A stretch of DNA of 64,000 nt, taken from an uncultured archaeon (lineage in GTDB: Archaea; Thermoplasmatota; Penumbrarchaeia; JASLWR01). The translations under genes and the position numbers were made by a program. Where the stretch lies: NCBI GenBank assembly GCA_964430885.1, contig CAYSHM010000001.1, forward strand, positions 1 through 64,000, given 5' to 3'. The notes under the pieces were generated by a model. It was not told where the DNA came from. It worked only from the letters and a program-made list of their open reading frames with translations, and searched no databases. This document shows, in pieces, positions 1 through 46,827 of this stretch. How positions within the stretch are numbered: the stretch's first letter is position 1; every line of letters starts with the position of its first letter.

Positions 1-3000
1 ATCATCATCATCGTCCCAAGAGTCAATATCATCATCGGAATCACCATCTTCCGCTTCAATCGATTCATCATCGGCTGCATCCGCATCATCCGAATCAGAT
101 TCCTTTTCCTCGAGGTCAGATTCTGCATCCATGTCCTCATCATATTCTTCATCATCGTCTTCAGAAGCTATCTTTCTTCTCTTAACATAAACGAATATTA
201 CAAGGATTATCAGCACTATGATGACCCCAACGATAATAGCAAGTGTAGTATAGTCCTTAGATCCGCCACCACCTGAACCATCATCAACCCCTGTGGATGC
301 CATGGGGGCAAATATAGTGAGATGGGTAACATTAGCATAAATAGTATGATTTTCAGTATCGACATAAGTACTTTCACACATCTCCCAACTGCCGGATGAT
401 TCATTCCAGAAATAAAGGCGCAGATCTTCGGCTTTCCCTCCTTCTGGTATATCAGAATCCTTGTAAGGCATCTCAATCATTAGACAATCAAGTTCTTCCA
501 AAGTAATCTCAAGGAAAACTCCCAGATCAATTAATTCAGGGGGCACTTCACCGACTGCACTGCTCATATCCTCAGTACGGGACATCCTCACACGCAGGGT
601 GCCGTTCCCCATAACCTCCAGCTTTACCATCATATTCCCGTAATCATCCCAAATCATCATCCTGCCCATTAATCCCTCCAAAATCGTCATATTCCTATCC
701 ATTAAACCCCACTCGGTTCTAACAGTAAGATTCTTACTAACTGATGAGTTCAGTCCATCATCATCTATTACTGTAAGAGTTACCTGGTAAGTACCTTTTG
801 CAGTGTAGAAATGAGATGTATTTTTTCCTGAAGAAGTGCTGCCGTCCCCAAAATCCCAATTCCATGAAACTATGCTGCCGTCAATATCCCTGGAAGTGTC
901 AGTGAAATTGACCATTTCATTGACCCACGGGAATGCCGGAAGATATCTGAATGAAGCTATAGGAGGATAGAATGTAGAAATATTCCTCTCCCTGACCATT
1001 ATTTGTTGAGTTATATTCCATGCAGACCTTGCATCTTCGGTTTCGGATGTAGGATCATGAACTGAAACGTACAAAGTTACATTATAAACTCCCGATTCTT
1101 CATAACTGTGATTGACGGTCATGCCGGATGAATTGTTCCCATCTCCGAAAAACCAGTTGAATTCCAGTTCATCAAGGGTGATGTTCAAGTAATCACAGGT
1201 CTGGTTGAAGATCACAGCATCTCCTGCCCTTGGAAGAATTGGAGAAAATTCGAAACCTGGCCACACTTCAGAAACTGGTTCCGGCGGCTCACCCACTTCC
1301 ACAACCACGCTCAAGGTGTCAGCATAATAATGTCCTGCGGTGATGGTAAGCATAATTGTATAATTACCTGGAGCAGGGAATGAATGAGTAATCTCTCTTG
1401 TGGATGCGTCGCTGCCGTCACCGAAATCCCATCTCCTGGCCACTATATCGGCAGTGGCTGTTGAATTATCTATGAAATTGAACTCGTTCCATTTCCCAGG
1501 TTCCTGTGAATGAATGATAATAACATCAATATCTACAGATGGGTGCTGGACCACAACTTGAACAATATCTGTGAACACTGCTCCTCCATCATCCGTAAAC
1601 TCAGCCGTCAATTCGTATTGGCCATCAGGCAGACCATAGGTATCCCAATCCAAATACCAGGATGAATTCTCAAATGGGCCTGCAGCTTCACCTATGAGAA
1701 CTGGATCGTCTGAATTCCTCTCCAATACAGGGCCTCTCTGGTAGAAATGACATCTCACTATGTCAGGGTGGTCCAGCTGGGCGCCCAGTTTTATTGATCC
1801 GGTAATATTCTCCTCTCCGTCGGGATAGAGTATCCTCGGAACTATATCTGAATTGACGTATCCCCATATCCACCTGACATTGTTGGACTGATCAGCATCT
1901 TCAGTAGCATTCACAAAGGTCCTGATATAGAACTCACCATCAATGTCTAGATTGATAGGCAAACTGACATTGACCAGATCACCAGGGCCCAAATAGGGCA
2001 GAACAAAGTCCGATTGATCACCGAATATCCAATTTGTCTTTAGGATGGAAATCTCATCTATGGCCATAAATGGACCGTTCACCCCGCTGTCACTTCTGAA
2101 AATGAACTTCATCTTGAACTGACTAGATTGGTATAAAGAAATGTCTATACTGACCCTATTCCACTTTCCGCCGGAGTTTGTGCTGTCAGTCCAAACAGGT
2201 ACACTGTCCCATGAAACACCGCCATCAGAACTCAGGTAGAGCTCACAGGAGTCACCGGATTCCTGCATCCAAGAATTCTCCCAGAAGACTAGGACTGGTG
2301 AAACCGCACCTGAAATGTCTATGGTAGGAGATAAAAGAGAATCATTCTCATTTATCCTGTAAGTATTTCCAGGCAGGAGGCCTCCCGAATTTTCACCTCC
2401 AATATTCATTGACCTGCCTATTGATGAGCCGAAATTCACATCATAATCCCTCAGCCAGGAGGCTCCAAGATTATCTCCAGTGACTGTCCAGCCCTTATCT
2501 TCATTAAAATTATCCTGGAATAGGTATTCCTTTGTGGTATAGGATACCTGGGCCCCAATGTTCAGATCATTGTAGGGGACATTACCATTATTTTCAATCC
2601 ATATCTCTACCTCATGATTTCCTGGCTCATATACTCCACCCTCGGTTATCTTTGAGAGGTTCACTATCTCAACCTCACCAGTGGAGGATTTTGCCACAAT
2701 TGAAATATTATCAATGTGCCAGCCAGCCAAGGAATAATACCCCCCATCATTGGTATCATAGTAAAATATGAACTGAACTGAATCCGACAGATACTTGCTG
2801 ATATCGAAGGATTCGTTCCTCCAGCTCCCCCACTGATTATTCGGATCTTCCCATATCTTCAGAGGATACCAGACCCCGCTTGAATTGCAGTATAAGACTG
2901 GTTCTATACTCGAATAGATCCATTGCCAAAGACGAAGGTTAACAAAATCGTAACCTGAAAGATCTAAATGGGGAGTTGAAAGAATGGATATATTATTGGG

Positions 3001-6000
3001 AGTATCCACCCCCGTCCTGTTGGTGGAAAAGATATTAGGGCCGGGATCATCGCTGTTGGGTCCCTCCGCAGGGAAAAAGGTTCTCTCACCATATTCCCAA
3101 TCACCAGTCCATTCCCATCCCGTGAGAGCACCCTGGTTCTCTAAATCCTCTGACCACAGTGTCTGTATATTCTCACCGCCCAGTATAACCGTTCCTGTGG
3201 CATTGTATGTATTGTTAGGATTGCCTTCATAACCGGGAAGATTAGATGTAATATTGAAATAGACCTGATAATCCGTTCCTATATCTGCATCCTTGGGAAT
3301 CTCCAATTCAACTATGAATGTTCTGGGTGAACCCGGATGAATGTTCATTAATTTATGACCGTCGGGGCCCTGCATATCCGCAAGGGGCATTATAGCTCCA
3401 TTGCTGTTCCTGACCTGGTATTCACAATTGGGCACCACTGAGACCTCTATCTCAAGTATTTCCACCGGAATAAATCTTTTCATGGTGGAATTGTTCGTCC
3501 TATCCCCCTGTACAAAGGTATCAACGGTAAGATTGAAGCCCTCTATGCTGCTGGCGAGATTCTCCACTGTGAACTCCATAGTGACATCGTTCCCCGGAGC
3601 TGCAAACACCTGACTGTCAGTATATTGTTCAGGCATCGATACCCTAGGAAGGAAAGTTGATTCCATGGTGTTATAATCAGGACCATCAAGCCAAAGGTAT
3701 GTGGTGTAAGAATCCCCAGAAGCGATATTCTGACCACCAGTAATACCGTTGCCATCTACAGCCCAGGCCATATCATCGACCAAAACATCACTGGTAATTC
3801 TTCTGGTGACGCTATCCTTATTGATATAAGTAATGAGGTTATCGAATTTAACCATGGAATATCCACCGTCATACCAAACCGGGATTAACTCACCCTCAGT
3901 AATAGGAAGCTCTGAATAAATCGAATCAAAATGTGCTTCAGGAAGTCTGCACATACCGTAATCGTATTCCCCGTTCCAGGCCAGAATCCCTGCATTCCAG
4001 AGATGGGAATGATGCTGAATGGTTATGGCAGGTGAGAGACAACCTAGAATACTTACCATATCCGAATCCAATTCAGCATTTGCCTCAGCAGAAACATGTC
4101 CGGTATAAGCAGCAGAATTCTCTGTATCCACAATGCTGATATCGTCTGCAGACACCAGATGGGTTGCATGTCCAAAAAGACTGTAATCAAATTTCTCATT
4201 GACCAAACCCTCCCCGAACAAACCCCAATTGAACAGTATCTCGCCTTCCCTGACAAGATAGCCGCATTTTTTCTCGATAGAAATTGAACCAACAGCCTCC
4301 ATCTGAAATTCCAAATCGGGAAACCGGCTGATATCCTTCGAGAAAATTCCCATACCCGTTATCTCAAGTGACCAGCCACGGGTGGTGTTCTGAAATATAA
4401 TATTCAGATAATCAGAAAGCAACAGTTCATCGGATATTACTTTCTGAGAAACAAGATGGTCAAACCAGCTGTTAATATTCACGATTCTGTTTGTAATGTA
4501 CTGATCCAGAGTGCAGATGTTTTCCGTATGGATCCTGAAATCGTCAGTTATGCCCTTGAAAAGTATACCGTCATCTTGTATCAGCGAAGACCACTCACCC
4601 TGTATCATTCCTCCTGGAAGATCTGTATCTGCGTACAATCTGTCACCGGTCCACACCTGAAAGTCTACAATATTCCTACCAATCATGCTGCCGCTGGTAA
4701 GGATAACAACATCCCCTGTGTTGTTGAAAATATCAGGCTCAGACGAGGTTCCCTCATCATCGCTGTACCAGTGTCCAACATTGATTTCTGAGTACCCCGT
4801 ATCGTCTACCCCCGGTCCGAAATGAAGGAAAATTACTGATTCCTCTGGCAGAATCACATCTTCGATTAGAGCACACTGCTGTCCCTGGCCGTTAAAAATC
4901 CTGAAACCGCTGAGGTTGAGCTCCTCCCCGTAATTGTATAGAACTATTTCCTCCGTTCCCGGGGCACCCCCCAGAGTATAATCGTAGATAAATAAGGAAT
5001 ATGAATTCTTCTTTCCGAGTGTAGGGCCGTTGGCAAAGGGGCCACCTCCGATATCCCAATCCTCTGCAGTATTTGTATCAGTAGAGAACTGGTCCCTTCC
5101 AATGCTGTCACCAGTCTCAAAGTCATCCTCGACATATGAACCTAAGGTCCACATACTATTATCTTGGGCATCGGTACTAACATCTCTGGTATTTAGATCG
5201 CCCCAACCCACATAATCAACGATTTTTGTTGGAGAATACAGTCCTACATCATCAATATTATCATCAAACACTTCCTCCACCACCCTGTAATAATATTCGG
5301 CACAGCCATCAGTGAGGTCCGTATCATTAACGTAGCCGAATACTGTAAGCTCGGACATAAAGTTCAGAACAATACAACTTCCTGGTGGGAGCAGAATCTC
5401 AGGCAGTTCATACCGGGATCCTGAACTGCTTTCAATATACCAGCTCTGAGTGTTCACACTGCCGCCCAAAGGATTTCTGATCTCCAAGGCCTCATGAGAA
5501 TTCACCCCTTCGGGTGAAACGAACATAATCTCGTTGATCAAAACGGTTCCAGGGACCCAACGATAATTAAAGGTATCATTATCCGTATACCATACCCTTC
5601 CCAAGGATGAACCTTCAACATATGTGGTGTTTATTCTGAATATATTACCTTCCAGCAGATCTGCACCGGACGCGTCCCTTTCAGCTTTCCCAGGTATAGA
5701 TGTATCGGACACATTGATCTTCCATGAAACGTAATCTACAATGGAAGGAAGGTCATTCTCCACCATGTAAAGGGCTGCGGAACCCAAAGTATTATTGAAG
5801 GTCTCAAAATGATTCTGGGTATAGTAATGGCCAAATGTATCATCCTGAAAATCAAGAGCTGCATCACCCCTGCCGAAATGAACCACTAGGGTACAGAATC
5901 CAGGTAATATTATATCTGATAATACCGCATCTATCTCTCCATCCCGGTTTGATATTCCCCATCCTTCCAGGTCCACATCGTTCTCACCGGAATTATAGAT

Positions 6001-6327
6001 AGATAACCATTCTCTTCCAGTATCTTCACCATAGGGATTGAACATTATTTCAGACAGCATCACCTTAAGTAGAGGATCCCCGCTCCTGGAAGGATAAACA
6101 TTGTTCAAATGGACGTCTGGTACATTATCCGATCCATCATCAGTGACCTTCATTTCCTTAGGATATCCTGAATCCTTGGCAAATATTGACATGAAGGCCC
6201 CCGAGCACAGGAGCAGCACCGTAAGAACTGGCAGTATTTTATCTATGGAAAAACCATATGTTCCGGTTTTGCTAATTATACCTGCTGGCACTGGATTCAA
6301 CAAACTCATTCTATATTTGAAATTCAT
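1..6327 (-). CDS. Giant cell-surface protein (>=2109 aa, 3' end outside the window): 3 lamin-tail-like domains, jelly-roll/MAM-like modules, Ig-like and >=3 PKD repeats, GPS/GAIN-like domain, C-terminal TM helix and acidic tail
   Basis: Absent from the ORF track, which is expected if there is no in-frame stop inside the window. Hand translation: ATG at 6327 after a GAGGTG SD-like motif, and the same frame at 4983, 1143, 843, 303 and 3. Motifs: VMLSEIMFNPYGEDTGREWLSIYNSG (LTD), WxFGDG x3, THLTIFA, AIIVGVIIVLIILVIFVYVKRRK, then a D/E-rich tail. Confidence 0.9.
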   Translation of the reverse strand, partial: MNFKYRMSLLNPVPAGIISKTGTYGFSIDKILPVLTVLLLCSGAFMSIFAKDSGYPKEMKVTDDGSDNVPDVHLNNVYPSRSGDPLLKVMLSEIMFNPYGEDTGREWLSIYNSGENDVDLEGWGISNRDGEIDAVLSDIILPGFCTLVVHFGRGDAALDFQDDTFGHYYTQNHFETFNNTLGSAALYMVENDLPSIVDYVSWKINVSDTSIPGKAERDASGADLLEGNIFRINTTYVEGSSLGRVWYTDNDTFNYRWVPGTVLINEIMFVSPEGVNSHEALEIRNPLGGSVNTQSWYIESSSGSRYELPEILLPPGSCIVLNFMSELTVFGYVNDTDLTDGCAEYYYRVVEEVFDDNIDDVGLYSPTKIVDYVGWGDLNTRDVSTDAQDNSMWTLGSYVEDDFETGDSIGRDQFSTDTNTAEDWDIGGGPFANGPTLGKKNSYSLFIYDYTLGGAPGTEEIVLYNYGEELNLSGFRIFNGQGQQCALIEDVILPEESVIFLHFGPGVDDTGYSEINVGHWYSDDEGTSSEPDIFNNTGDVVILTSGSMIGRNIVDFQVWTGDRLYADTDLPGGMIQGEWSSLIQDDGILFKGITDDFRIHTENICTLDQYITNRIVNINSWFDHLVSQKVISDELLLSDYLNIIFQNTTRGWSLEITGMGIFSKDISRFPDLEFQMEAVGSISIEKKCGYLVREGEILFNWGLFGEGLVNEKFDYSLFGHATHLVSADDISIVDTENSAAYTGHVSAEANAELDSDMVSILGCLSPAITIQHHSHLWNAGILAWNGEYDYGMCRLPEAHFDSIYSELPITEGELIPVWYDGGYSMVKFDNLITYINKDSVTRRITSDVLVDDMAWAVDGNGITGGQNIASGDSYTTYLWLDGPDYNTMESTFLPRVSMPEQYTDSQVFAAPGNDVTMEFTVENLASSIEGFNLTVDTFVQGDRTNNSTMKRFIPVEILEIEVSVVPNCEYQVRNSNGAIMPLADMQGPDGHKLMNIHPGSPRTFIVELEIPKDADIGTDYQVYFNITSNLPGYEGNPNNTYNATGTVILGGENIQTLWSEDLENQGALTGWEWTGDWEYGERTFFPAEGPNSDDPGPNIFSTNRTGVDTPNNISILSTPHLDLSGYDFVNLRLWQWIYSSIEPVLYCNSSGVWYPLKIWEDPNNQWGSWRNESFDISKYLSDSVQFIFYYDTNDGGYYSLAGWHIDNISIVAKSSTGEVEIVNLSKITEGGVYEPGNHEVEIWIENNGNVPYNDLNIGAQVSYTTKEYLFQDNFNEDKGWTVTGDNLGASWLRDYDVNFGSSIGRSMNIGGENSGGLLPGNTYRINENDSLLSPTIDISGAVSPVLVFWENSWMQESGDSCELYLSSDGGVSWDSVPVWTDSTNSGGKWNRVSIDISLYQSSQFKMKFIFRSDSGVNGPFMAIDEISILKTNWIFGDQSDFVLPYLGPGDLVNVSLPINLDIDGEFYIRTFVNATEDADQSNNVRWIWGYVNSDIVPRILYPDGEENITGSIKLGAQLDHPDIVRCHFYQRGPVLERNSDDPVLIGEAAGPFENSSWYLDWDTYGLPDGQYELTAEFTDDGGAVFTDIVQVVVQHPSVDIDVIIIHSQEPGKWNEFNFIDNSTATADIVARRWDFGDGSDASTREITHSFPAPGNYTIMLTITAGHYYADTLSVVVEVGEPPEPVSEVWPGFEFSPILPRAGDAVIFNQTCDYLNITLDELEFNWFFGDGNNSSGMTVNHSYEESGVYNVTLYVSVHDPTSETEDARSAWNITQQIMVRERNISTFYPPIASFRYLPAFPWVNEMVNFTDTSRDIDGSIVSWNWDFGDGSTSSGKNTSHFYTAKGTYQVTLTVIDDDGLNSSVSKNLTVRTEWGLMDRNMTILEGLMGRMMIWDDYGNMMVKLEVMGNGTLRVRMSRTEDMSSAVGEVPPELIDLGVFLEITLEELDCLMIEMPYKDSDIPEGGKAEDLRLYFWNESSGSWEMCESTYVDTENHTIYANVTHLTIFAPMASTGVDDGSGGGGSKDYTTLAIIVGVIIVLIILVIFVYVKRRKIASEDDDEEYDEDMDAESDLEEKESDSDDADAADDESIEAEDGDSDDDIDSWDDDDD

Positions 6328-9494: not shown

Positions 9495-10417
9495 TGCTGG
9501 CCTTCGATAATGTATCTAAATGGTACGGACAGGTTTTGGGTATAATGGACGTATCCACATCTCTTGAAAAAGGCGTAATAGGGATACTGGGACCGAATGG
9601 TGCAGGAAAATCCACCTTCTTGAAACTAGCTACCGGTCAATTGAGACCTGATAAAGGAAAGGTCACAGTATTTGGAGAATCAGTCTGGAACAACAGCAAT
9701 TACACCAAACATGTGGGGTACTGTCCGGAATACGAGAACATGTACGACTGGATGACAGGATATGAATTCGTGAACAGCATGCTTCTACTTTCAGGTTTTC
9801 AGCGGGAAAAAGCAAAGGAACTCACTCGAAGAGCTATGAAAAGGGTGAACATGGAGAAACGCGGTGTTAGGAAGATTAGAACCTACAGCAAGGGAATGAG
9901 ACAAAGGATAAAAATAGCACAGGCAATAGCCCACCGCCCCAAGATACTTTTCCTAGACGAACCACTTGCAGGAACTGATCCTATGGGGCGTATCGAAATA
10001 ATCAAACTGATAAGAGAGTTGGGTAAAAGAGAGATGACGGTGGTGGTCTCCAGCCATATCCTCCATGAAGTGGAGAAGATGACTGAGAGGCTGATAATGC
10101 TCTATAAAGGAAGGGTAATAGCCTGGGGAAATATGGAAGAGATCAGGGATAAACTCGATGAGTTCCCCCATACACTGGAGATAAGGTGCAGTGAGATAAA
10201 TAAGCTAGCAAAGATCGCCATAGACCTTCCCGGGGTCACTTCTGTAAAGATCAAGAAGAACGGTATAAATGTGTTGATGACAGAACCGAACAAATTCTAT
10301 TTGGAGCTGCCGAAGGTTCTGGTCAAGAACAATATCACCATCCAGGGGATGGGATCCCTTGATGAAGATCTCGAATCAATTTTTTCATATCTGGTCAGGA
10401 GGAATGATAGAGCATGA
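9494..10417 (+). CDS. ABC transporter ATP-binding protein
   Basis: TAATG stop/start overlap at 9492-9496; GPNGAGKST, YSKGMRQR, LFLDEP. Confidence 0.95.
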   Translation: MLAFDNVSKWYGQVLGIMDVSTSLEKGVIGILGPNGAGKSTFLKLATGQLRPDKGKVTVFGESVWNNSNYTKHVGYCPEYENMYDWMTGYEFVNSMLLLSGFQREKAKELTRRAMKRVNMEKRGVRKIRTYSKGMRQRIKIAQAIAHRPKILFLDEPLAGTDPMGRIEIIKLIRELGKREMTVVVSSHILHEVEKMTERLIMLYKGRVIAWGNMEEIRDKLDEFPHTLEIRCSEINKLAKIAIDLPGVTSVKIKKNGINVLMTEPNKFYLELPKVLVKNNITIQGMGSLDEDLESIFSYLVRRNDRA

Positions 10418-11187
10418 CTGGAGAGATTAAACGCACCTCCGCTGGCCAGAGGATAGGTGTCCTGACTAGGATGTCCTTCTTTCAAGCCTTCCTCAGAAAG
10501 CGGATGATAGGAATTGCCCTGTTCATGCTTATCCCTATTGTTATCACAATAATATGGATGATTAAGGTGGATGATGCAAAACCTCTGGAGGAATTTTCCG
10601 GTCTCTTCATTGTTCTGTATCTGCATATACTTATTCCTCTCGTCACCCTGATAATGGGTGTGAACCTATTCCATTCAGAATTCAGAGATAAGACAATTTC
10701 ATATCTTCTTATCAGGCCGCTTCCCCGTTGGGGGGTATATCTGGGCAAGGTCTTGGGTTTGGTGGTGGCCGAACTGCTGGTAGTATTACCTTCTGTGGCA
10801 ATAACATTCTTTTTGATGATGAGCAAAGGAGAAGAATCCGGTTATATCGGCAATCTGTTCGGTTTCATATTAATGACTTGTTTGGGTATATTGACATACT
10901 CACTCTTCTTCATACTTCTGGGCCTGAAGTTCAAACGTCCAATGCTGATAGGTTTGGTGGTGGCCTTCTTCTGGGAAAAAACTGTTTCAGTTCTCAGCAC
11001 CACCATAGCTAAGTTCACAATACTTCACCATCTGCTTTCCATCGGCAACAAGATCATAAATGTAGAGGGCTTTGGTATGTCCGGGGAAGAAACAAGTCCT
11101 AAAACTGCCTTAATCATATTGATGGTGATGATAACGGTATTTTCTGCATTATCTATCAGAATTTTGAATCGGAAAGAAATCTCCTGA
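10414..11187 (+). CDS. ABC-2 type permease
   Basis: ATGA overlap with the upstream gene; about 6 TMs; EFRDKTISYLLIRPLPRWGVYLGK motif. Confidence 0.9.
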   Translation: MTGEIKRTSAGQRIGVLTRMSFFQAFLRKRMIGIALFMLIPIVITIIWMIKVDDAKPLEEFSGLFIVLYLHILIPLVTLIMGVNLFHSEFRDKTISYLLIRPLPRWGVYLGKVLGLVVAELLVVLPSVAITFFLMMSKGEESGYIGNLFGFILMTCLGILTYSLFFILLGLKFKRPMLIGLVVAFFWEKTVSVLSTTIAKFTILHHLLSIGNKIINVEGFGMSGEETSPKTALIILMVMITVFSALSIRILNRKEIS

Positions 11188-11562
11188 AGATTTTTTCTCC
11201 ATCAGCAATTTCGAATTATTCAATAAAATCTTTTATCCCAATATTATATAATATATATTGTACATTCAAGTAGATGCAAATGAAGGAATTGGAAATCTAC
11301 CTGAATTTAATAATTGGACGAGTCGTTAGGGAAGAAAGGAAAGCACGTGTAAGATAATCGAAGAAGGAAAGAAAAAGGCGAAGGAAGACAGACATAAGAA
11401 CAGATAGTATTGTAAGTAAGTACGGAAGTAAAAAGAAAAACCGGCATTCAAACCTTGTTTTTTTTATTGGGAATGCCAACACAAATGATTAAAAAACAAA
11501 GCCATTTTTTATAAATGGATATTTTCATCAAAATAATAAGCTAAAAGGAGACAGTAGATATT

Positions 11563-13866
11563 ATGAAGATTAGTAGGTACGAAATGGAACTTGAAGGTAA
11601 TACGTTAATTATCGAGCACGGCAGAATGGCATCCCAGGCGGGGGCAGCAGTGATTGCACAGATGGGAGAAACATCTGTTCTAGCCACTGTAACAATGTCA
11701 AAAGGTTCAAGACAAGGAATTAATTTTTTTCCATTAATGGTAGATTATGAGGAACAGTTCTCTGCTGCAGGCAGAATAAAAGGTCCCCGATATACGAAAA
11801 GAGAGGGACGACCCTCCAACGAGGCAATATTGATCTCGAGAATGATAGACCGGGGTTTAAGACCACTGTTCCCCCAAAATATCAGGAACGACATACAGGT
11901 AATATGCATTCCCTTGAGTTTGGATTATGAGAATCCTCCTGATATATTATCAATGATAGCCGCATGCACAGCTATACATATTTCCAATATACCCTTTGAC
12001 GGCCCGATTGTCGGTGTAAGGGTTGGTCTGATGACGGGAGAATTGGTGATAAATCCCCCATCAGAAGATATGGATTACTGCGAGATGGATCTGGTTGTAA
12101 TGGGTGATGGAGAACGGATAACAATGGTTGAGGCTAGTGCACAGGATATTCCAGACGAGTTCTTCGTAGATGGATGTAAAATGGCAATGGAGGCAATGGG
12201 GCCTCTTGCCAAATTCATTGATGATATAAGAACGGATATTGGACATGAAAAAGCCTCTGAAGATGAACTAGTACTCAGGGATAATTACAGTCCAGAAGAT
12301 ATTGAAGTTATTGAAAAAATGAAAACAATGGCCAATCCACATTTGGAAAAATATCTATTCAATACCCCGAAGGGATCCAAAGGAGAGAGAAAGGATATTC
12401 TCAAGGGATTGAAGAACCTGATCCTAGATGAGCTTTCCAAGGAACTGAAGACAGAGGAAAGAGATGAGGAGGCCACAAAAAATTATCTCTCTGGATTGAT
12501 CGGCTCATTTTTCATGGACTTTATTGAAGAACAGGTAACAAAGGCAATTCTGGATAAGGACCTCAGAATAGACGGAAGAAAACTCGATGAGATTAGAGAA
12601 TTAAAAGCAGATGCGGGATTTATCCCGCGGCTGCATGGTTCGGGTCTTTTTTCAAGAGGGGAAACACAAGTTCTTTCCATGGCTACCCTGGGAGCCCCCG
12701 GGGATGTTCTTACAGTGGAAACCATGGTAACCGATGACAGTAAAAGATTCTTCCACCACTATAACTTTAAACCGTTCTCAGTGGGCGAAGTAAAACCCAT
12801 CAGGGGAGCTAGCAGGAGGGATATCGGACATGGAACATTGGCGGAAAAAGCTTTAAGACCAGTTATTCCTGATAAGATCGAATTCCCTTATACAATCAGG
12901 GTTGTCAGTGAAGTGATGAGCTCCAACGGTTCATCATCAATGGCCTCTTCCTGCGGATCCACCCTGGCCCTTATGGATGCCGGCGTACCCATCAAGAAAG
13001 CTGTGGCCGGCATAGCTATCGGCCTTGCTTCGGACAATGAGAGATGGAAAATATTAACAGATATTCAGGACCTCGAGGATGGAACTGGCGGTATGGATTT
13101 CAAGTTCACAGGAACCAGGGACGGCTTAACGGCCATCCAGATGGATACAAAGACCAGGGGACTGGGGCTGGACATCATAGAGGCGTCAATGCCTCGAATG
13201 AGAAAGGCCATATCTGAAATTCTGGATATCATGGAAGAAACCATAGGCGAACCCAGAGCTGAACTGTCTCCCTATGCGCCGAGGATCATCAATTATATGA
13301 TCGATACGGATAGGATCGGAGAGGTAATCGGACCCGGAGGAAAGATCATCAGAGGGATCCAGGATGAATTTGATGTACAGGTGGATATAGATGATACAGG
13401 CCTGGTCCAGATCACTTCTACAGATGCAGAAAGTGCTGAAGGTGCTCTGAATTTTGTCAAGAACATTGTAAGAAAGATTGAAGTGGGGGAAGTTTTCGAA
13501 GAAGCAGAGGTTGTGAAGATCACCAATTTCGGAGCATTTATCAACCTTACGGGCAATAACGACGGATTATGCCATATTTCAGAGATCGATTGGGATCATG
13601 TAAAGAGAGTAGAAGATCGTCTGAATGTTGGTGACAAAGTAAAGGTCAAGGTAATCAAGGTCATGGGCGACAAGATTAACGTCTCAATTCGGGCATTGAA
13701 ACCAAAGCCTAAGACCCTGGGATCTTCAGGCGGGCGACCTAGAAGTAGATCTGGCCCCCGAAGCGGAGGGCGAGGGCGTTTCTCAAGTAGACCTTCCAGT
13801 GGCCGAAATAGTTACAGAAGAAAACCACCCAGAGATAATGATAATGCCAAGAAAAATGTTGAATAG
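11563..13866 (+). CDS. pnp: Polyribonucleotide nucleotidyltransferase (bacterial-type PNPase)
   Basis: Two RNase PH domains ([63 protein letters not shown]), KH ([12 protein letters not shown]), S1 ([13 protein letters not shown]), R/G/S-rich tail; AGGAG upstream. Confidence 0.97.
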
Positions 13867-13918
13867 GTTTTTATCTGGCCTATTGAACCTATCCTCTTAA
13901 TTTCCTCAAAGTGATCGC

Positions 13919-14941
13919 ATGAGCCATAATGCCATTGTTACAAATAATTTAACAAAAAGATACAGTGAAATCACAGCAGTGGACAATGTTTCTTTCAAGG
14001 TAAAAAAGGGTGAAATATTCGGTTTTCTCGGCCCTAATGGCGCAGGGAAAACAACTACCATAAGGATGTTATGCACCCTTTCCAGACCAACATCTGGAAC
14101 TGCAACGGTCGCCGGGTATGATATTGTAAAAAATGATCATCGGGTCAGAGAGCATATTGGACTGGTGGCGGAAAAATTGATAATGTATGACGAATTGACC
14201 GCCAGGGAGAATCTCAAACTATTCGGAAAACTCTACAACCTGTCATCTGGTGAACTGTCCGAAAGAACCGATGAGTTACTTGATCTTGTCAGGATGGAAA
14301 AATGGGCGAACCAGCAGATAGGAAAGTTTTCAACTGGAATGAAACAGAGGATCAATGTTATTAGGGCTCTATTGAACAAACCTGAGATACTCTTTCTGGA
14401 TGAGCCTACTTTGGGTCTCGATCCACAATCCACAAGTGAGATCAGGAACATAATCCGGCGTATCAACAAAGAGAACGGGACCACTATAATTCTTACCACT
14501 CACATGATGGTTGAGGCCGATATGCTGTGTCACAGACTAGGTATAATAGACAATGGCAAGATAGCGGCTTTGGATACTCCCGGCAACCTGAAAAGTATAC
14601 TTCTGGACGGAAAATCCACTGTAATGGAATTCCAGGTGGATTTCATCAAACCTTATCTAAAGAAACACCTCTTGGATAAAGGGTTCATAGACCGAGTGAG
14701 CCTGACTGGTGAGAACCGAATTAAAATACACGGCCGAGGAGAAGAATCTCTTACGAGTATTATTGACGAGATCCGTAGTGCAGGGTGCCGAATAAGGAAT
14801 ATCAATAACCTTGAGCCTACATTGGAAGATGTGTTCCTCCACATCACTGGCAAGAATGTCAGGGACGATGCATCCAACAGTAAGAACAAGATGAAAGGAC
14901 CTTCAAGACACAGATGGAAAAAAACCAGCAGGGTAAGGTGA
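13919..14941 (+). CDS. ABC transporter ATP-binding protein (DrrA-like)
   Basis: GPNGAGKTT, FSTGMKQR, LFLDEPTLGLDP, C-terminal PTLEDVFL. Confidence 0.95.
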   Translation: MSHNAIVTNNLTKRYSEITAVDNVSFKVKKGEIFGFLGPNGAGKTTTIRMLCTLSRPTSGTATVAGYDIVKNDHRVREHIGLVAEKLIMYDELTARENLKLFGKLYNLSSGELSERTDELLDLVRMEKWANQQIGKFSTGMKQRINVIRALLNKPEILFLDEPTLGLDPQSTSEIRNIIRRINKENGTTIILTTHMMVEADMLCHRLGIIDNGKIAALDTPGNLKSILLDGKSTVMEFQVDFIKPYLKKHLLDKGFIDRVSLTGENRIKIHGRGEESLTSIIDEIRSAGCRIRNINNLEPTLEDVFLHITGKNVRDDASNSKNKMKGPSRHRWKKTSRVR

Positions 14942-14946
14942 TATAA

Positions 14947-16137
14947 TTGGGATTGGGCAGTATCTTCAGACACAGTTTTTGGATATGCTGGAAGGACATC
15001 ACCGAGTTCTCCAGAAGCAAGCTACGCTTGATAATGCTTGTAATAATGCCCCTTTTCATGATGGTGATGGTTGGTTTCATCTTCCCTTCTTCAGGTTCCC
15101 TGGTAGATCAACCAATAGCTATTGCTAACCTAGATACAGGTATAAACGGCACATATCACTCCAGGGAATTCATTGATGCATTGGAAGCAATCAATGTAAG
15201 GACTGAGATCATGGATATCAAAACCGCAAGGAATTTCAATGATATCAAGAAGATGATACAGGACGGTGACATATCCGGCGGCCTGATAATCGAAGAAGAT
15301 TTTTCCCAATCCGTTGAAAATGGTCTGAAAGCGAATCTCACCGTAGTACCTGACCAGACGAATCCCCAGCTGGCAATGGTCATTGAAACCGTTCTATCCG
15401 AAACAATTGAGGAAATGGGAAAACAGAGGGCCGTAGGAAAGATCAATCTTACAATGAACATTTCCCTTGAAAAGAGCGATGCAATAGTGAACCCCTACAG
15501 AGTAAACATCAGAGGTCTCGTTGAGGGAGATCCCAACTACTTCCAGTTCGTGGCCCCGGGAATAATGGCCATGGTAGTAATGATGTCATTGATGACCGGC
15601 CTTCCACACGCCATATCTTATGAAAAGGACATAGGCACCCTTGATGGAATGCTTGTTGCCCCAATTAACAGAATTTCTATAATCCTGGGTAAGGTAATGG
15701 CCCAAACTACCAGAGGTATGGTACAGGGCCTCATAATTGTGGTTTTGGCCACACTTCTATTTGACGTGAAGATATTCGGTAATATATTTTTAGTATTTCT
15801 TTTACTGCTCCTGGGTGTTTTCAGTTTTGTAGGGTTAGGAATACTCATAACTTCATTTACCGATAAGGAAGAAACTGCATCAATGGTGATGATGTCCCTC
15901 ATGTTCCCAATGATGTTCTTTTCAGGTGTTTTTTTCCCAATCCAGCAGATGCCGAGGTTCATGCAGATAATATCTCAAGCTCTGCCCCTTACTTATGCTA
16001 CAAGAGCCCTGAGAAAGGTAATGATACTTGGCGCCGGGCCATCATCCATATGGATTGAAATGAGCATCATGGCAGGATTCGGTATCGTCCTTCTGGCGAT
16101 TGCAGTTCCAATGTTCAAGAGAGCCATGACAAGATAG
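14947..16137 (+). CDS. ABC-2 family permease
   Basis: TM1, extracellular loop, then 5 TMs; YEKDIGTLDGMLVAP..LGK; FSGVFFP..MP; PLTYA. Confidence 0.92.
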   Translation: MGLGSIFRHSFWICWKDITEFSRSKLRLIMLVIMPLFMMVMVGFIFPSSGSLVDQPIAIANLDTGINGTYHSREFIDALEAINVRTEIMDIKTARNFNDIKKMIQDGDISGGLIIEEDFSQSVENGLKANLTVVPDQTNPQLAMVIETVLSETIEEMGKQRAVGKINLTMNISLEKSDAIVNPYRVNIRGLVEGDPNYFQFVAPGIMAMVVMMSLMTGLPHAISYEKDIGTLDGMLVAPINRISIILGKVMAQTTRGMVQGLIIVVLATLLFDVKIFGNIFLVFLLLLLGVFSFVGLGILITSFTDKEETASMVMMSLMFPMMFFSGVFFPIQQMPRFMQIISQALPLTYATRALRKVMILGAGPSSIWIEMSIMAGFGIVLLAIAVPMFKRAMTR

Positions 16138-22982: not shown

Positions 22983-24236
22983 CTAACTATATATTGAATA
23001 GGAAATCTCAACATACTGATCGTATGCATCAAGTCGGTATATTTTCATATCGTGATGAATCGGGTCCACTACCAGTGCTATTTGATAATCCTTTTTGAAC
23101 ATTCTCTTTTGGGTCTCTATGTCCGTTTCCGAAAGAAAACATGTATGGCCAGGATGGGAATGATACCAACCGAGGAGAATATAATCTTTACCTTCTTTCT
23201 CGAATTTGTAAAGATCCTTGAACATGGGGCCAAAATCTTTGAACTTAACAGATACTGATGAAGCGTCAAGATCCGATGTTACCACATGCTCGATATCTAT
23301 GTAGGTCCCTCCTTCGCAGGAAAATCTATGCCCCATAAGAAAACCCAGTGCTTCAAGATTCTTTTTACCCATCTTCCCGCAATGTTCCATGATCATTTTA
23401 AAAGCGGAATGGGAAATATAAACATCAGCTATACTCAATGGAGTTAGTTCGGGCATATCCTTTGATGGAAATGAAGATAAACTTTTAGACTGATTATTTT
23501 CTTTACTAACTGGTTCCTTTGATGAATCTTCTTCTTTGTCAATATTTTGTTCTTTTTCTTTAAAATGGCCAAGCTTTTCCTGGGATTCTTGGTATATTGT
23601 AAGGTCATCCCTGGATATTTCTACTGTTTGGCCCCTATCAGAAGAATCAGATTCTTTTACTGTATCATGCTTGATAATATCTTCTTCTTTTTGATATTTG
23701 ATTATTTTCTTATCTATATTCAATTCAACTAGAAGAGTATCCAATTCAATACCCAGATCATCTTTGATAAAGTTACGAAGTTCTTCACTATTGATTAGAT
23801 CTTCTTCAAGACTCATCAGGAACTTTGCAAGCTCTTCCTTGGATGTAGGTGCAATCCCCTTGGATTTTTCTCTACCTGAAAAAATTGAAGTATCGAGATT
23901 GACGTTAACAATAAAATTGAAAAGGGGTTCATCGGTATTGGAAGTATTATTTTCTCGAAATTTGTCAGTTTCTTCCGATTTTACTTTAAGGGCATCCTTT
24001 ATCTCTTTAGCAAGAACATTGACCTTTTCGTCATATTTTTCTCTGATACGGTTCTCTATCTCTTTCATTATGGATTTAGACAATATATCTTTCTTTATTT
24101 CATCAGTTGATGCTTTTATTGTTATTGATTCGAATAATGAAACAAGATCCTTTTTTAGAGATAGGGTTGATTTGGAAAGAATATCTTCAAGTTTTACCTC
24201 GAATTCTTTGAAAAATTCTTCAAATTTCTCAGCCAT
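22983..24236 (-). CDS. JAMM/MPN+ (JAB) metalloprotease, Rpn11/CSN5-like, with a ~260-aa charged helical N-terminal extension
   Basis: EALGFLMG ... [23 protein letters not shown] (complete E...HxH-x7-S-x2-D motif), IALVVDP. Confidence 0.92.
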   Translation of the reverse strand: [417 protein letters not shown]

Positions 24237-24328
24237 CTCATTGACACCATTTTGATTGGAAATAACATATTAAAGAATAAACTTGATTACTACAATGAAT
24301 AACAGTAACCATGTTCTGACCAGAATAA

Positions 24329-24571
24329 TTAAAAACCGCCTTCTGGATCGGGTATTAGTTCAAGTAGATCGCCTTCTCTAATACCTGAAATTCCAATCTT
24401 GGTTTGTCCCCTTAAAACTTTCTTGCCGTACCTAAGTACATAAGCCCCTGCTTCTTTTTCCCAGTAGCTTGCAGCACTTTCAATAACTTCTTCTATTGTA
24501 TTATCTTGTTCAAGATCCATTTCAACTTTGCTTCCAGTATCAGCGTCTCTTATTGCAATTCTTAAGCTCAT
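24329..24571 (-). CDS. Ubiquitin-like beta-grasp protein, C-terminus ...PEGG-F
   Basis: 80 aa; aligns to ubiquitin by hand with a single 1-residue gap; di-Gly followed by one residue; GGAG SD-like motif; same strand and 92 bp upstream of the JAMM gene. Confidence 0.85.
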   Translation of the reverse strand: MSLRIAIRDADTGSKVEMDLEQDNTIEEVIESAASYWEKEAGAYVLRYGKKVLRGQTKIGISGIREGDLLELIPDPEGGF

Positions 24572-24789
24572 CTATATCTCTCCATGTCTAATGATTAGAT
24601 TAAATATTCAATTGGGTTTATCAACATTTTTTCACTCTGCAAGAGCAATCAACAACTATAACCAAACTGAGTTATGTGGAAGCTAATAATGCTATACCAA
24701 TATTAATATTTTTACTCTATTGGAATAGACTTGACAGTTTGAATTAGAAAGAACATAATTTAATTGTGAATAAAATACACAAAATAATA

Positions 24790-25121
24790 CCCCCTCCCCC
24801 CTAGATTTCCTATGGAAAATAATACTTTTTAAAGAAAAAAAATAGGAAATTATACCATTTATAATTTCTATAATAATAATGATGTAATAAAATATACCCG
24901 AATTCTTAATTCCAAATAGAGTTTATATACTTTACTAATATATTTTTCTTTTGTCAATTTTTATTAAAAAATAATGAATAATGATTTTTGAAATAAAAAT
25001 CTAAAACATTATACTCTTCATTATAAAAAAAAAATAAAAAAAAATAATTTTCCCCCCTTTCTCTCCTAATTAACATTAAAAATCCATAGGAAACCTAGGG
25101 GTCCCCCCCTTCGTTCCTATC
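24790..25121. promoter_or_regulatory. Candidate archaeal replication origin (ORB-like boxes flanking an AT-rich unwinding element)
   Basis: TCCATAGGAAATCTAGGGGGG on - (24796-24816) and TCCATAGGAAACCTAGGGGT on + (25083-25102) form an inverted pair with 1 mismatch. 24821-25050 is ~86% AT by hand count. Two degenerate copies at 25052-25069 and 25103-25121. Confidence 0.7.
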
Positions 25122-27838: not shown

Positions 27839-30799
27839 TCAGTTTATCGTACTTAGAAGTTCAAAGTCGAAATTTCCTTTTTCAATGCAGAACTTGGTAG
27901 GTCTGAGCAACACTTTGTTCCCTATGCCCAGTATAATGTTGTCGTTCCTATTTTTCTTAACTAGGTCTTTATAAAATCCCTTGTTATTTTGGAGTCTGCT
28001 TCCAGTAACTATCACCTTTGTCTCATCCTCGCTTATGTGTGTTCTCTTTGAGGAAAGGCTTTTCATTAAAATGAAACCTTCCATGCCTTCCTCTAGTGTT
28101 ACAAAGATACCCCTTGGTATGATCCCGTTGACATAACCTACATGCTTTCCGTTCATGAATTTAGTATCCATGATCGAATGGATACAATTTATAATATCTT
28201 TTATTGAGTATTCGAAGCTCTCTGCCTCCCTGGACCTTTCCGAGCATAATAAGCATATATCGTCGATTTCCTTCTCAGAGTACTGTAGGCCCAGATCCTT
28301 TTTGAAATCATTATTCAAAAGCCAGAGAACATCCTTCAGAAGCCGGTGTGCTATAAGGTCAGGATATCTTCTTATGGGCGAAGTGAAATGAAGATAACAG
28401 TCAGATCCCAATCCGAAATGACCTATGTTCTGTGAGGAATAAACAGCCAGATCTAGGCATTTCAGTATAGATATGTTCAATATCTCTTTCAGCTTGTTCT
28501 CCAAACTGCTTTTGTTGATGCTTTTCAGAACTCTGTTAAGATCCCTGATGATCCGGTCCCTTTTTTCGACCTCTATATATCCTTCTATCCTCCCTCTGAG
28601 AGCCTTTTTTATCTCTTTCATATCCCTTTCCATCACAGCATGTTTAAGATGATCAATATCCTTCAGGTTCATTTTATCCGAAACCCTCTGTTCCGGATCG
28701 GATAGCTCATTGTTCTCTTCATGTATACCAAGGCTTTTCAGAAGGGCGGGGTCCATTTTCCCTTTGACCTTGATCCTGATGTCGCCCATTCCGCCGAATC
28801 CCATATCCACTTCCATTTTCTTTTTTCTAGCCCTATCGATCACATTTTCATTGAAAAGTTCTATGTTCAATCTATTATGTCTTGCTATTGAATTGAAATT
28901 GACAAGCCTGGATATATCCGGCATCCCATGGGCCCTATAGGGAATATATCTGAAAAAAGCTGTCAGGAAAGTTGCTATCACCTCGTTGGTGGTAACCATG
29001 AAGGTCTCTATCATCTCTGTGGCGGGATTTGGTCTCTTGAACTCCCTGGTGACCTTGTTCCCCCGTGCGGAAAGCCTCAACTCGGAAGTCTCTATTTCCA
29101 GTTGATTTCTTTTGGCTCTCAATAGCCGGCTGAATTCGATCCATTCTCTGAAGGGTTGTTCATTTCTCCTGAAACCTTCCAGCACATCCTCATAGCAGAG
29201 GTTCCTTGTGACAGTTATTACGGAAGGGAAAAGGTCAAAATCCAGCATAATACCCTTTTTATCGAAGATCATTCTTGTCGTCATGGCGAATCTGTCAACC
29301 TTCTCTTTCAGAGAGCACAGGTCGTTTGACAGAACCTCGGGAAGCATGGGAAGGACAGTATCAGGAAGATAGACGCTTGTACATCTTTTTCCAGCTTCCT
29401 TATCCAGAGGATCATCTTTTATCACATAGTGTGAAACATCAGCGATATGAACAAAAAGAACTGTGTTTTCACCATCTTTCTCAATACTGATGGCATCATC
29501 AAAATCCTTTGCGTCTTTGGGATCTATTGTATAAGCGGTCATCTGCCTGAGATCCTTTCTTTCAAGTCTTCCATCCATTCTCTTATCTTCATTGCCTGCA
29601 TCTTCATGTTCACCATTTATATTTCCTGCAAAAGTGTATTCCAGATCCTGCATCGCTTTCAGTGATCTGCTGCTGTAAACCTTCGGATAATGCTTCGAAA
29701 AGGTGAATTGCCCTGTTTTTATCATTCTAGCGATATAAATGTTCCTTGATTTCTCCAGGGTCCAGTATCCCACCGCCAGTAGGAATAGGGTGAATACGGT
29801 AGTATGAGTACCTTTTTCAATACCGGTGATTGATTCGGCCAATCGGATTAAATAGGTCCTGATGTCAAAATTCTCAGTTTTGGTTATACGGATATCTGGA
29901 TCATTTGAAAGGCTCAATCCTCTTCCCCACCTGTCGTTAAGAATGAAATCCTCCATAAAAGAGCACATCTTCAGCATGAGCATTGTTCTCTCCTCATCTG
30001 AAAATATTCTTCGTATCAAATGCTTGTTATCCTTCCCTTTTTTCTCTCCATTAAGGGATTGGCATTCGCCATCCTCAAGTCCGGTAAGCATGGATTCTAT
30101 GATCAGGCTTGTATTCATTCTATTTGGGTCTTTGTTCGGATGGTTTTCCCTGCATTTGGAAAATTTATAATCTTCGAGTATTTTCGAAATATCCAGAAGC
30201 GTTCGAATCGTTCTTTTCAAGGTAATAAAATCTTTTTCAGAAAGCACCCTGTAAATGCCCTTTTTTCCTATTTTATTGAAAAAGGCATATCCCTCCTCTA
30301 TGCTATCATCTATGACATTTCTGACCTTTTCGATCTTGGCAGATGAACAGCCTTTTTTCCCGAAATTTAATTCCGCGATCTCCCTAAGGGTCATTTTCTT
30401 GCTTTTGTCCCTAACCTCCAGCCAAATAGAACTGACCGAGATATCTCTTGAGATGATATTACCGGAATCTATCTTATGAATTTTATTTCTGCCCGGTCCT
30501 GATCTTGAATCTTTCCTCTTTCCGTCGGCCCTATCTTTTCCTTTTGTATTCCCTCTTCCGATTATATCAAGCAGTTTTTCCTTCATTTTCAAGGAATCGC
30601 CTAGGACATTATCTTCCATAACATAATTTTTCCCCAGTCTACGGGTTATATCGCTTTTCTTCACGTATTTCTTTCCTTGAATGGTGAATATGACCTCTTT
30701 CTTCTTTTTTTTTGATCTACCTAGGAATACAGCCAAGTTATAGGGTATTTTCAAACCGGATGTTCCGTCTTTAAGCTCCACGATCTGTCCGTTCTTCAT
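27839..30799 (-). CDS. RNB-domain 3'-5' exoribonuclease (RNase R/II family), atypical N-terminus
   Basis: TIDPKDAKDFDDAIS, VHIADVSHYV, SVYLP..VLPMLP, MIETFMV, GHFGLG..YLHFTSPIRRYPDLIAHRLLK, C-terminal S1-like region. Confidence 0.92.
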   Translation of the reverse strand: MKNGQIVELKDGTSGLKIPYNLAVFLGRSKKKKKEVIFTIQGKKYVKKSDITRRLGKNYVMEDNVLGDSLKMKEKLLDIIGRGNTKGKDRADGKRKDSRSGPGRNKIHKIDSGNIISRDISVSSIWLEVRDKSKKMTLREIAELNFGKKGCSSAKIEKVRNVIDDSIEEGYAFFNKIGKKGIYRVLSEKDFITLKRTIRTLLDISKILEDYKFSKCRENHPNKDPNRMNTSLIIESMLTGLEDGECQSLNGEKKGKDNKHLIRRIFSDEERTMLMLKMCSFMEDFILNDRWGRGLSLSNDPDIRITKTENFDIRTYLIRLAESITGIEKGTHTTVFTLFLLAVGYWTLEKSRNIYIARMIKTGQFTFSKHYPKVYSSRSLKAMQDLEYTFAGNINGEHEDAGNEDKRMDGRLERKDLRQMTAYTIDPKDAKDFDDAISIEKDGENTVLFVHIADVSHYVIKDDPLDKEAGKRCTSVYLPDTVLPMLPEVLSNDLCSLKEKVDRFAMTTRMIFDKKGIMLDFDLFPSVITVTRNLCYEDVLEGFRRNEQPFREWIEFSRLLRAKRNQLEIETSELRLSARGNKVTREFKRPNPATEMIETFMVTTNEVIATFLTAFFRYIPYRAHGMPDISRLVNFNSIARHNRLNIELFNENVIDRARKKKMEVDMGFGGMGDIRIKVKGKMDPALLKSLGIHEENNELSDPEQRVSDKMNLKDIDHLKHAVMERDMKEIKKALRGRIEGYIEVEKRDRIIRDLNRVLKSINKSSLENKLKEILNISILKCLDLAVYSSQNIGHFGLGSDCYLHFTSPIRRYPDLIAHRLLKDVLWLLNNDFKKDLGLQYSEKEIDDICLLCSERSREAESFEYSIKDIINCIHSIMDTKFMNGKHVGYVNGIIPRGIFVTLEEGMEGFILMKSLSSKRTHISEDETKVIVTGSRLQNNKGFYKDLVKKNRNDNIILGIGNKVLLRPTKFCIEKGNFDFELLSTIN

Positions 30800-46626: not shown

Positions 46627-46752
46627 GATGTGTCAACCCCATGTTGTTCTGGAAAAGCTATAATGAGATAGGGAATTAATAAGGATGACTGTAGAATTAG
46701 AAGAAATTTTCTTGGTGAGGAGAAATATATATGCAGAATATTATTGAAAAAG

Positions 46753-46827
46753 TGCTCCCGCCGGGATTTGAACCCGGGTAGCTGGCTCGAAAGGCCAGAA
46801 TGATTGGCCGGACTACACCACGGGAGC
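46753..46827 (-). tRNA. tRNA-Glu(TTC), no encoded CCA, no intron
   Basis: Reverse complement GCTCCCGTGGTGTAGTCCGGCCAATCATTCTGGCCTTTCGAGCCAGCTACCCGGGTTCAAATCCCGGCGGGAGCA; acceptor stem GCTCCCG/CGGGAGC, anticodon arm CTGGC-CTTTCGA-GCCAG, T-loop TTCAAAT. Confidence 0.97.

Follow-up and report, generated by a model that had tools for sequence, protein, structure and literature searches.

The 64,000-nucleotide stretch of DNA analysed here (the window) stands at the beginning of a 251-kb contig (C1) from an uncultured archaeon of the Thermoplasmatota class Penumbrarchaeia, and carries a complete gene, pnp, for polynucleotide phosphorylase (PNPase), a phosphate-dependent 3'-to-5' exoribonuclease the reverse reaction of which can add heteropolymeric tails. 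PNPase is typical of bacteria and organelles; archaea normally use the Rrp41/Rrp42 exosome, and some exosome-less lineages use RNase R. Taken together, the data presented below make it probable that pnp results from a single ancient acquisition from a bacterium resembling members of the candidate phyla radiation (CPR; Patescibacteria) followed by vertical inheritance, that the exosome has become dispensable, and that PNPase is the likely main phosphorolytic enzyme.

According to the history thereby proposed, the ancestor of the class would have acquired pnp once, the portion coding for a basic C-terminal tail included, and the gene would since have adjusted completely to its host genome. With it a homologue of the exosome core, capable of phosphorolysis in its own right, would have entered the class, and the exosome already present would have become dispensable: in the window organism the ring of Rrp41 and Rrp42 persists with its caps Rrp4 and Csl4, the active site of Rrp41 being gone, and in most relatives the exosome genes are undetectable. 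PNPase would then probably be the principal enzyme of phosphorolytic 3' decay and of tailing, acting beside an RNB hydrolase and RNase PH.

The pnp gene, its product and its chromosomal setting

A single uninterrupted open reading frame (ORF) accounts for the whole of pnp (Table 1). Comparison of its translation with Pfam models gave two matches to RNase_PH (best stretch, residues 343-476), one to RNase_PH_C (147-211), one to KH_1 and one to S1, all on one chain, and both NCBIfam equivalog models for PNPase, NF008805 (810.1 bits; cut-off 471) and TIGR03591 (805.3 bits; cut-off 525.05), matched as a single stretch over residues 6-711, the equivalog match extending over model positions 2-688 of 689 and hence the full model length. 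The closest solved structures were likewise PNPases (8zaw, E = 7e-177; 5yjj, E = 5e-176), and identity to the PNPase of Escherichia coli MG1655 amounted to 40% over 691 residues. Alignment with the latter placed D506, D512 and K514 opposite D486, D492 and K494, which are given as Mn/Mg ligands in the available part of PMC2723993, and found the serine-rich phosphate loop SNGSSSMAS and the RR motif RRDIGHG to be unchanged. The agreement between domain order, equivalog scores and ligand alignment bears out the preliminary description, prepared from the DNA letters alone, of a full-length enzyme with PH1-helical-PH2-KH-S1 architecture; the R/G/S-rich tail which it mentioned is indeed present (residues 713-767).

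In each of the defining sequence-level features tested, the window protein behaves like any other PNPase. It is very likely functional and active, and presumably assembles into a homotrimeric ring with KH and S1 domains feeding RNA to the channel, both predictions drawing on 40-50% identity to solved trimeric PNPases. Relative to bacterial Pnp (TIGR03591/NF008805; structures 8zaw and 5yjj and, from E. coli, 7ogk/3cdi), it has the same domain order, ligands and motifs, and scores far above the family cut-offs. The differences lie in the archaeal host, in the absence of both an rpsO-pnp operon and a leader, in that a search of the genome yielded no partner of the RNase E, RNase Y or bacterial RNase J type, and, with respect to the E. 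coli enzyme, in a 55-residue Arg/Gly/Ser-rich tail that the latter is without.

The gene located 5' of pnp codes for an ABC-2 permease, so that the usual bacterial neighbour rpsO is missing, as had been remarked beforehand. The AT-rich spacer of 375 bp that separates the two genes contains a TATA-like element (TTTATAAA, 11508-11515) about 50 nt before the pnp ATG and a GGAG (11547-11550) 12 nt ahead of it, elements that would fit an archaeal promoter. An Rfam scan gave no leader or other RNA near pnp, its sole match being tRNA-Glu (46753-46827), and scans for sigma-70 promoters and terminators remained at the level of shuffled sequence. On the 3' side stands an ABC-transporter ATPase gene (13919-16137), as also in six genomes of family f7 of the same class (loci L012, L014, L017, L019, L052 and L053); the ATPases of the window and of these six genomes are about 30% identical, a level expected for any pair of ABC ATPases, and the recurrence may be due to chance. 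That gene apart, the genes flanking pnp in the window were not conserved beside pnp in 16 relatives.

The archaeal setting claimed for the gene proved genuine: Cdc6/Orc1, TRM5/TYW2 and an HVO_0163-type HTH regulator are encoded in the window, and SBDS, Rrp4 and Csl4 elsewhere in the genome (3.13 Mb, 44 contigs, 91.6% complete). An artefact, through which a bacterial (CPR) fragment had been fused to archaeal sequence or sorted into an archaeal bin, might be suspected on the grounds that the nearest non-archaeal relatives of the protein are CPR proteins and that local gene order differs from that in relatives; it is nonetheless effectively refuted. Within the 251-kb contig pnp lies between archaeal-type genes; two 46.8-kb contigs from per-run assemblies (X1 and X2), which may derive from the source samples and so are not independent, cover positions 10300-15100 without any difference, and the two ends of the gene are each bridged by a short contig from another sample of that study (X3 at the start, X4 at the end), this check being made with contigs rather than raw reads. 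The composition of pnp is typical for the genome, its GC content (0.447) falling at the 49th percentile of 1070 long ORFs and its codon-usage distance, compared with 260 ORFs of like length, at the 70th. Furthermore, the closest CPR protein is only 49-50% identical, while orthologues at 53-69% identity are found across the class (see below), one of them in a one-contig genome of 3.6 Mb (G012). The chimeric assembly at the flanks that had been named as the finding's potential undoing was thus not seen, and an artefact retains next to no probability.

Distribution and phylogeny of archaeal PNPases

Occurrence was established in 401 genomes drawn evenly from the phylum (37 from the class of the window organism and 364 from outside it), the criterion for PNPase being a TIGR03591 match at E ≤ 1e-60, and in a set of 41 relatives that includes the window genome itself (G000). 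PNPase was recorded in 33 of the 401: the carriers comprised 32 of the 37 class members, spanning eight of the nine families, and a single genome (G050) of the 364 outside. The model scored above cut-off in 31 of the 41 relatives and, in a control scan, in ten of ten bacterial and none of four archaeal control genomes. Of the five class genomes without PNPase, two make up family f2 (completeness 94% and 80%) and three belong to family f7 (68-83%). Out of 8000 database homologues scored, the top 120 were 55-68% identical to the window PNPase, and the organism names among these 120 were all those of Thermoplasmata/Thermoplasmatota metagenome-assembled genomes (MAGs) except for one [Eubacterium] cellulosolvens record. 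With such frequencies inside and outside the class, and with named homologues of this kind, PNPase can be regarded as a class character; the survey of sister genomes that had been suggested at the outset thereby placed the gene in nearly all families of the class.

The anomalous NCBI record (P0082, 57% identical) falls inside the archaeal clade of the trees described below, and its label is therefore probably wrong, through mislabelling or a contaminant contig. The PNPase of G050 (locus L044, G050:C112:18545-20647) also nests within the clade of the class, with a tail that looks frameshifted and is hydrophobic, not basic; this genome carries a canonical Rrp41 as well, and a secondary transfer, a misbinned 21-kb contig or an effect of the taxonomy boundary are all possibilities. 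A search of contigs with the PNPase protein returned one match of 37 residues, to a Rhodospirillaceae MAG, which was rejected as spurious.

For phylogenetic analysis, the 150 best-scoring members of a representative library clustered at 50% identity were used, the best being 50-44% identical to the window PNPase. Thirty of these 150 clusters were looked up, and the eight that bore an organism name belonged to Ca. Uhrbacteria (one), Patescibacteria group (two), Ca. Paceibacterota (two), Ca. Peregrinibacteria (one), Ca. Abawacabacteria (one) and Pseudomonadota (one). A FastTree phylogeny of 194 sequences, combining all 150 representatives with 44 archaeal PNPases (every fifth of P0002-P0121, plus P0028, P0082 and 17 sequences from relatives' loci), recovered the archaeal proteins as monophyletic (support 1.0), with Uhrbacteria- and Patescibacteria-named proteins among their immediate sisters (node support 0.993). 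In an IQ-TREE phylogeny (LG+G4), rooted on E. coli and comprising besides it 12 archaeal rows together with 38 near and 21 far representatives (72 rows in all), SH-aLRT values of 100 were obtained for the 12 archaeal rows, 99 for a 16-row clade uniting these with the Uhrbacteria- and Patescibacteria-named proteins, and 99 for a 53-row clade that encloses the latter and takes in each of the seven CPR-named representatives; E. coli and the representative named as Pseudomonadota fall outside it. Within the archaeal clade the three f1 genomes grouped together (99), as did the members of f7, both of which groupings agree with vertical inheritance.

By score and tree alike, the nearest non-archaeal relatives were Patescibacteria PNPases (P0123, Ca. 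Uhrbacteria, 49%; P0126, Patescibacteria group bacterium, 44%), from which the archaeal proteins are set apart as a clade of their own on a stem of 0.3 substitutions per site; identity among the archaeal PNPases (53-69%) compares with at most 50% between any of them and any representative. Many CPR-side proteins are also Arg/Gly-rich at the C-terminus (e.g., P0122, P0124, P0127 and P0178). A tail of at least 30 residues was present in all 44 archaeal PNPases compared (median Arg fraction 0.27), and one of at least 30 residues with an Arg fraction of at least 0.2 in 39 of the 150 bacterial representatives, several nearest neighbours among them, so that the basic tail probably arrived with the gene.

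As regards the donor clade, the archaeal proteins are nested among PNPases the named members of which are all Patescibacteria (CPR), and from this topology we infer a bacterial origin with high confidence and a CPR donor with moderate confidence. Patescibacteria living on archaea, as reported in the available portions of PMC9600506, PMC10936435 and PMC12281837, would provide a plausible transfer route. The horizontal acquisition put forward in the preliminary description was consequently upheld as to its bacterial source, and corrected as to its scope, being ancient and class-wide rather than peculiar to one genome. A recent, strain-level transfer into the window genome only, for which nothing beyond the bacterial affinity of the family can be adduced, is refuted by the distribution and the tree: pnp extends across eight of nine class families, the archaeal copies are monophyletic, their tree matches family membership, and codon usage is ameliorated. 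That PNPase was ancestral in archaea, or moved from this class to CPR bacteria, gains what credence it has from the fact that the PNPase trees were given their root, on E. coli or at the midpoint, and did not have it inferred; it is very unlikely, given that the enzyme is near-universal in bacteria, as the control scan reflects, and confined to one genome of the phylum outside the class, and that the archaeal clade forms a single long-stemmed branch within several CPR-named lineages (Uhrbacteria, Paceibacterota, Peregrinibacteria and Abawacabacteria) rather than the other way round.

The exosome and other exoribonucleases

A search for exosome genes of the kind that had been proposed identified four in the window genome. 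Rrp4 (C13:24924-25634; NF003181, 223.3 bits, cut-off 200) and Csl4 (C11:24574-25155, minus strand; NF034126, 148.8 bits, cut-off 90) passed the thresholds of their models, rrp4 being in its usual place after the proteasome-alpha (psmA) and SBDS genes, whereas the Rrp41-like (G000:C9:3693-4553; TIGR02065, 172 bits, cut-off 318.7) and Rrp42-like (C9:4550-5329; 109.8 bits, cut-off 280) proteins failed theirs. The genes for the latter pair overlap by 4 nt and lie beside an EamA-type transporter gene, off the psmA-SBDS-rrp4 cluster; that cluster (G000:C13:23293-25634) is followed directly by a leucyl-tRNA-synthetase-like ORF.

Alignment of the Rrp41-like protein with solved Rrp41 chains and with the sequences of 16 relatives established that the DRR motif was lost, that DAGTR had become GAGLM, and that both catalytic aspartates of ED...GEAD were replaced by leucine; DRR, DAGTR and both aspartates were retained in 14 of 14 canonical Rrp41 sequences. 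The aspartate pair is equated with D486 and D492 of PNPase in the available part of PMC2723993. The Rrp41 proteins of G002 (f1) and G007 (f5) exhibited other, equally disabling, substitutions.

Across the phylum sample Rrp41 was detected in 369 of 401 genomes, comprising 13 of the 37 class members and 356 of the 364 others; within the class, neither Rrp41 nor Rrp4 was found in 24 of the 37. Searches of the relatives with the Rrp41 model, the window organism's own Rrp41-like protein and the Rrp4 model left the same 24 of 41 genomes without either subunit, ten of these being at least 90% complete. Class genomes with PNPase were divided between those with a canonical Rrp41 (eight), a degenerate one (three: G000, G002 and G007) and none detected (21). 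Where PNPase was not found, Rrp41 was canonical in two genomes and undetected in three, all incomplete. The former two constitute family f2, the sole class family without PNPase, and both have the canonical SBDS-rrp4-rrp41-rrp42 operon. In four genomes that are 83-93% complete (G001, G008, G010 and G014), PNPase was present and no Rrp41, Rrp4 or RNB protein was detected; in these PNPase would be the sole recognised 3' exonuclease. As exosome subunits serve as archaeal marker genes, their absence will depress completeness estimates in the class.

An RNB-domain exoribonuclease is also encoded in the window, 14 kb from pnp and on the opposite strand (Table 1). It failed the RNase R model TIGR02063 (342.9 bits; cut-off 597.85), and of the CSD-RNB-S1 architecture of RNase R only the RNB domain passed Pfam, in two stretches split by a Lys/Glu-rich insert of about 70 residues. 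The acidic motif DPKDAKDFDD (D-x6-D-x-D-D) is present, and presumably supplies the catalytic aspartates. About 400 residues ahead of the RNB domain match no family, and the f1 relatives G002 and G003 share the split. RNB proteins occurred in 116 of the 401 phylum genomes, for the most part in families with a canonical Rrp41 as well; since these include whole families outside the class, RNB is an older, independent feature of the phylum rather than a gene that accompanies pnp. Relatives without a detected exosome also have RNB proteins of similar length, which makes it unlikely that the N-terminal region is exosome-specific.

Family-model searches of the window genome did not find RNase E/G, and gave for RNase Y and bacterial RNase J weak partial matches only, far below cut-offs. 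The bacterial-style RNA decay that the preliminary description had read into the proximity of pnp and the RNB gene is consequently not supported, and neither is the link between the two genes. A bacterial-type RNase PH was identified on a small contig (G000:C38:6577-7329, minus strand; TIGR01966, 326.8 bits, cut-off 141.5), in all three other f1 genomes, and altogether in 12 of the 41 relatives, all within the class. It is a second bacterial-type phosphorolytic RNase of the lineage, and the class has accordingly gathered bacterial-type exonucleases but no degradosome.

The degeneracy of Rrp41 in the window organism, combined with the non-detection of Rrp41 and Rrp4 in most of its class compared with the near-constancy of Rrp41 outside it, indicates that PNPase probably took over exosome catalysis; the genomes with PNPase alone and the pattern across the class are as such a take-over predicts. 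The earlier suggestion that PNPase might replace or duplicate the exosome can thereby be put in a sharper form, in that the window organism still keeps the four exosome genes with all checked catalytic and phosphate-site residues gone from its Rrp41, and most class relatives are without detectable rrp41 and rrp4.

Certain considerations count against this interpretation. Since eight class genomes combine PNPase with a canonical-looking Rrp41, some lineages stably keep both enzymes and displacement need not follow: a take-over of the kind proposed is neither immediate nor universal. Most of the exosome-less f7 genomes also carry an RNB protein, which could be the compensating enzyme there. Related genomes are not independent samples, a reservation that applies to all class counts, and incompleteness affects those counts, as is evident from G031, G033 and G035 (68, 69 and 83% complete), f7 genomes in which neither PNPase nor Rrp41 was found. 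Even among members of the family the surroundings of the gene are not conserved, so that synteny lends no support. The identification of the donor leans on organism names for only eight of the 30 clusters looked up, and the tree covers just the 150 best-scoring representatives under the LG+G4 model. Lastly, the activity of PNPase in the window organism is a prediction from sequence.

The first two of these points would equally be expected if no replacement had occurred and PNPase had a separate, specialised role (tailing, small-RNA or stress turnover, or the handling of damaged RNA), the decay of the exosome being otherwise caused, for example by RNB compensation; all three genomes with a degenerate Rrp41 have an RNB protein, as this alternative would also anticipate. 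However, RNB alone does not track exosome loss in the phylum, as RNB families outside the class (f31, f35, f16 and f34) keep Rrp41 almost without exception; the four class genomes with PNPase and no detected RNB, Rrp41 or Rrp4 are not accounted for by compensation; and the one family without PNPase is that which keeps an intact exosome operon. A separate role is thus considered unlikely, and the take-over of exosome catalysis by PNPase is preferred.

The archaeal exosome and PNPase are, according to the available part of PMC2723993, homologous phosphorolytic machines of RNase PH fold with S1/KH caps and the same chemistry. Where the archaeal exosome is built from Rrp41/Rrp42 with Rrp4/Csl4, PNPase has all parts on one chain; relative to the canonical complex, the window organism has all four genes, with an Rrp41 that lacks catalytic and phosphate-site residues and scores below its family cut-off. 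Haloarchaea and some methanogens, which are exosome-less and use RNase R, provide in the available part of PMC7144898 a precedent for replacement of the exosome by a bacterial-type 3' exonuclease, the difference being that the incoming enzyme here is PNPase.

A further comparison can be drawn with eukaryotes. Their Exo9 core is a catalytically inert RNase PH ring dependent on the RNB-type nuclease Rrp44/Dis3 (see also PMC5735172), and the window genome similarly keeps caps and an RNase PH ring stripped of its phosphorolytic residues beside an RNB-domain nuclease. This likeness could reflect a staged swap, in which, after the arrival of a CPR-derived PNPase, the ring was first inactivated (as in G000, G002 and G007) and then deleted in most lineages, the inert ring and caps being kept meanwhile as an RNA-binding scaffold or channel for RNB or PNPase. 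Such a sequence of events, which if true would represent an independent prokaryotic re-run of the route to the inert Exo9 core, is regarded as rather unlikely. In contrast to Exo9, a contact between the archaeal RNB protein and the ring would be hypothetical, and relatives with no detected exosome have RNB proteins of similar length.

With respect to novelty, a literature search found no description of an archaeal PNPase, subscription journals and supplements being mostly outside its scope, so that a published mention is possible. No archaeal PNPase was known according to the available part of PMC2723993, and another paper that uses the term 'archaeal PNPase' means the exosome by it; PNPase is treated as bacterial or organellar only in the available parts of that source and of PMC7144898, the latter describing archaeal 3' decay as dependent on the exosome or RNase R only. 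PNPase is not mentioned in two Thermoprofundales genome papers, and PMC6461988 contains no occurrence of 'exosome' or 'ribonuclease'. Public annotation pipelines already name proteins of the class PNPase, which detracts from the novelty expected of the gene while leaving it without a paper that describes it. The enzyme itself belongs to a known family and is met in an unexpected domain; its host, how long ago it was transferred and the exosome decay that goes with it are the unusual features.

The implication is that PNPase belongs to an entire class of Thermoplasmatota, abundant in sediments and the sea, with an exosome that ranges from intact, via a catalytically dead ring, to undetectable. 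This constitutes a natural series in which it may be asked what the exosome ring and caps do besides catalysis, how one homologous machine displaces another, and whether contact between CPR bacteria and archaea moves core information-processing genes between domains.

Coordinates and further features of the window

Table 1. Positions of pnp, its domains and other features in the 64-kb window
Feature	Position	Strand	Evidence
pnp, complete PNPase gene (PH1-helical-PH2-KH-S1 plus basic tail); ATG at 11563, stop ending at 13866, 767 aa	11563..13866	+	ORF list; Pfam, NCBIfam and PDB matches
Second RNase PH domain, catalytic core (aa 343-476), including RRDIGHG and SNGSSSMAS phosphate/RNA-site motifs	12589..12990	+	Pfam best stretch; E. 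coli PNPase alignment
Active-site motif of 16 residues (aa 499-514), holding D506/D512/K514	13057..13104	+	Alignment to E. coli PNPase
KH domain (aa 578-632)	13294..13458	+	Pfam KH_1, E 7.7e-9
S1 domain (aa 638-707)	13474..13683	+	Pfam S1, E 1.5e-15
Arg/Gly/Ser/Pro-rich, disordered-looking tail (aa 713-767, 55 residues)	13699..13863	+	Sequence read
AT-rich spacer 5' of pnp, 375 bp	11188..11562	+	Sequence read
RNB-domain exoribonuclease, 986 aa (context only, not linked to pnp)	27839..30799	-	Pfam RNB, E 8.9e-88
Surface-type ORF of >2109 aa, running off the window	1-6327	-	
FGE-sulfatase domain fused to five PKD repeats, very large surface-type	25117-27714	-	
PKD/CARDB protein of 1703 aa, very large surface-type	31922-37033	-	
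Big_9 protein of 1045 aa, very large surface-type	59094-62231	-	

A trough in GC content (0.31-0.32, compared with about 0.42) was observed at 23000-26000, surrounding the gene for a JAB/MPN-domain protein of 417 residues (22983-24236, minus strand) and the spacer before that for the FGE-sulfatase/PKD protein. The Cdc6/Orc1 gene (48150-49343, plus strand) is situated near tRNA-Glu (46752-46827, minus strand), and GC skew flips sign several times between 41 and 50 kb; this stretch may be a replication origin region.

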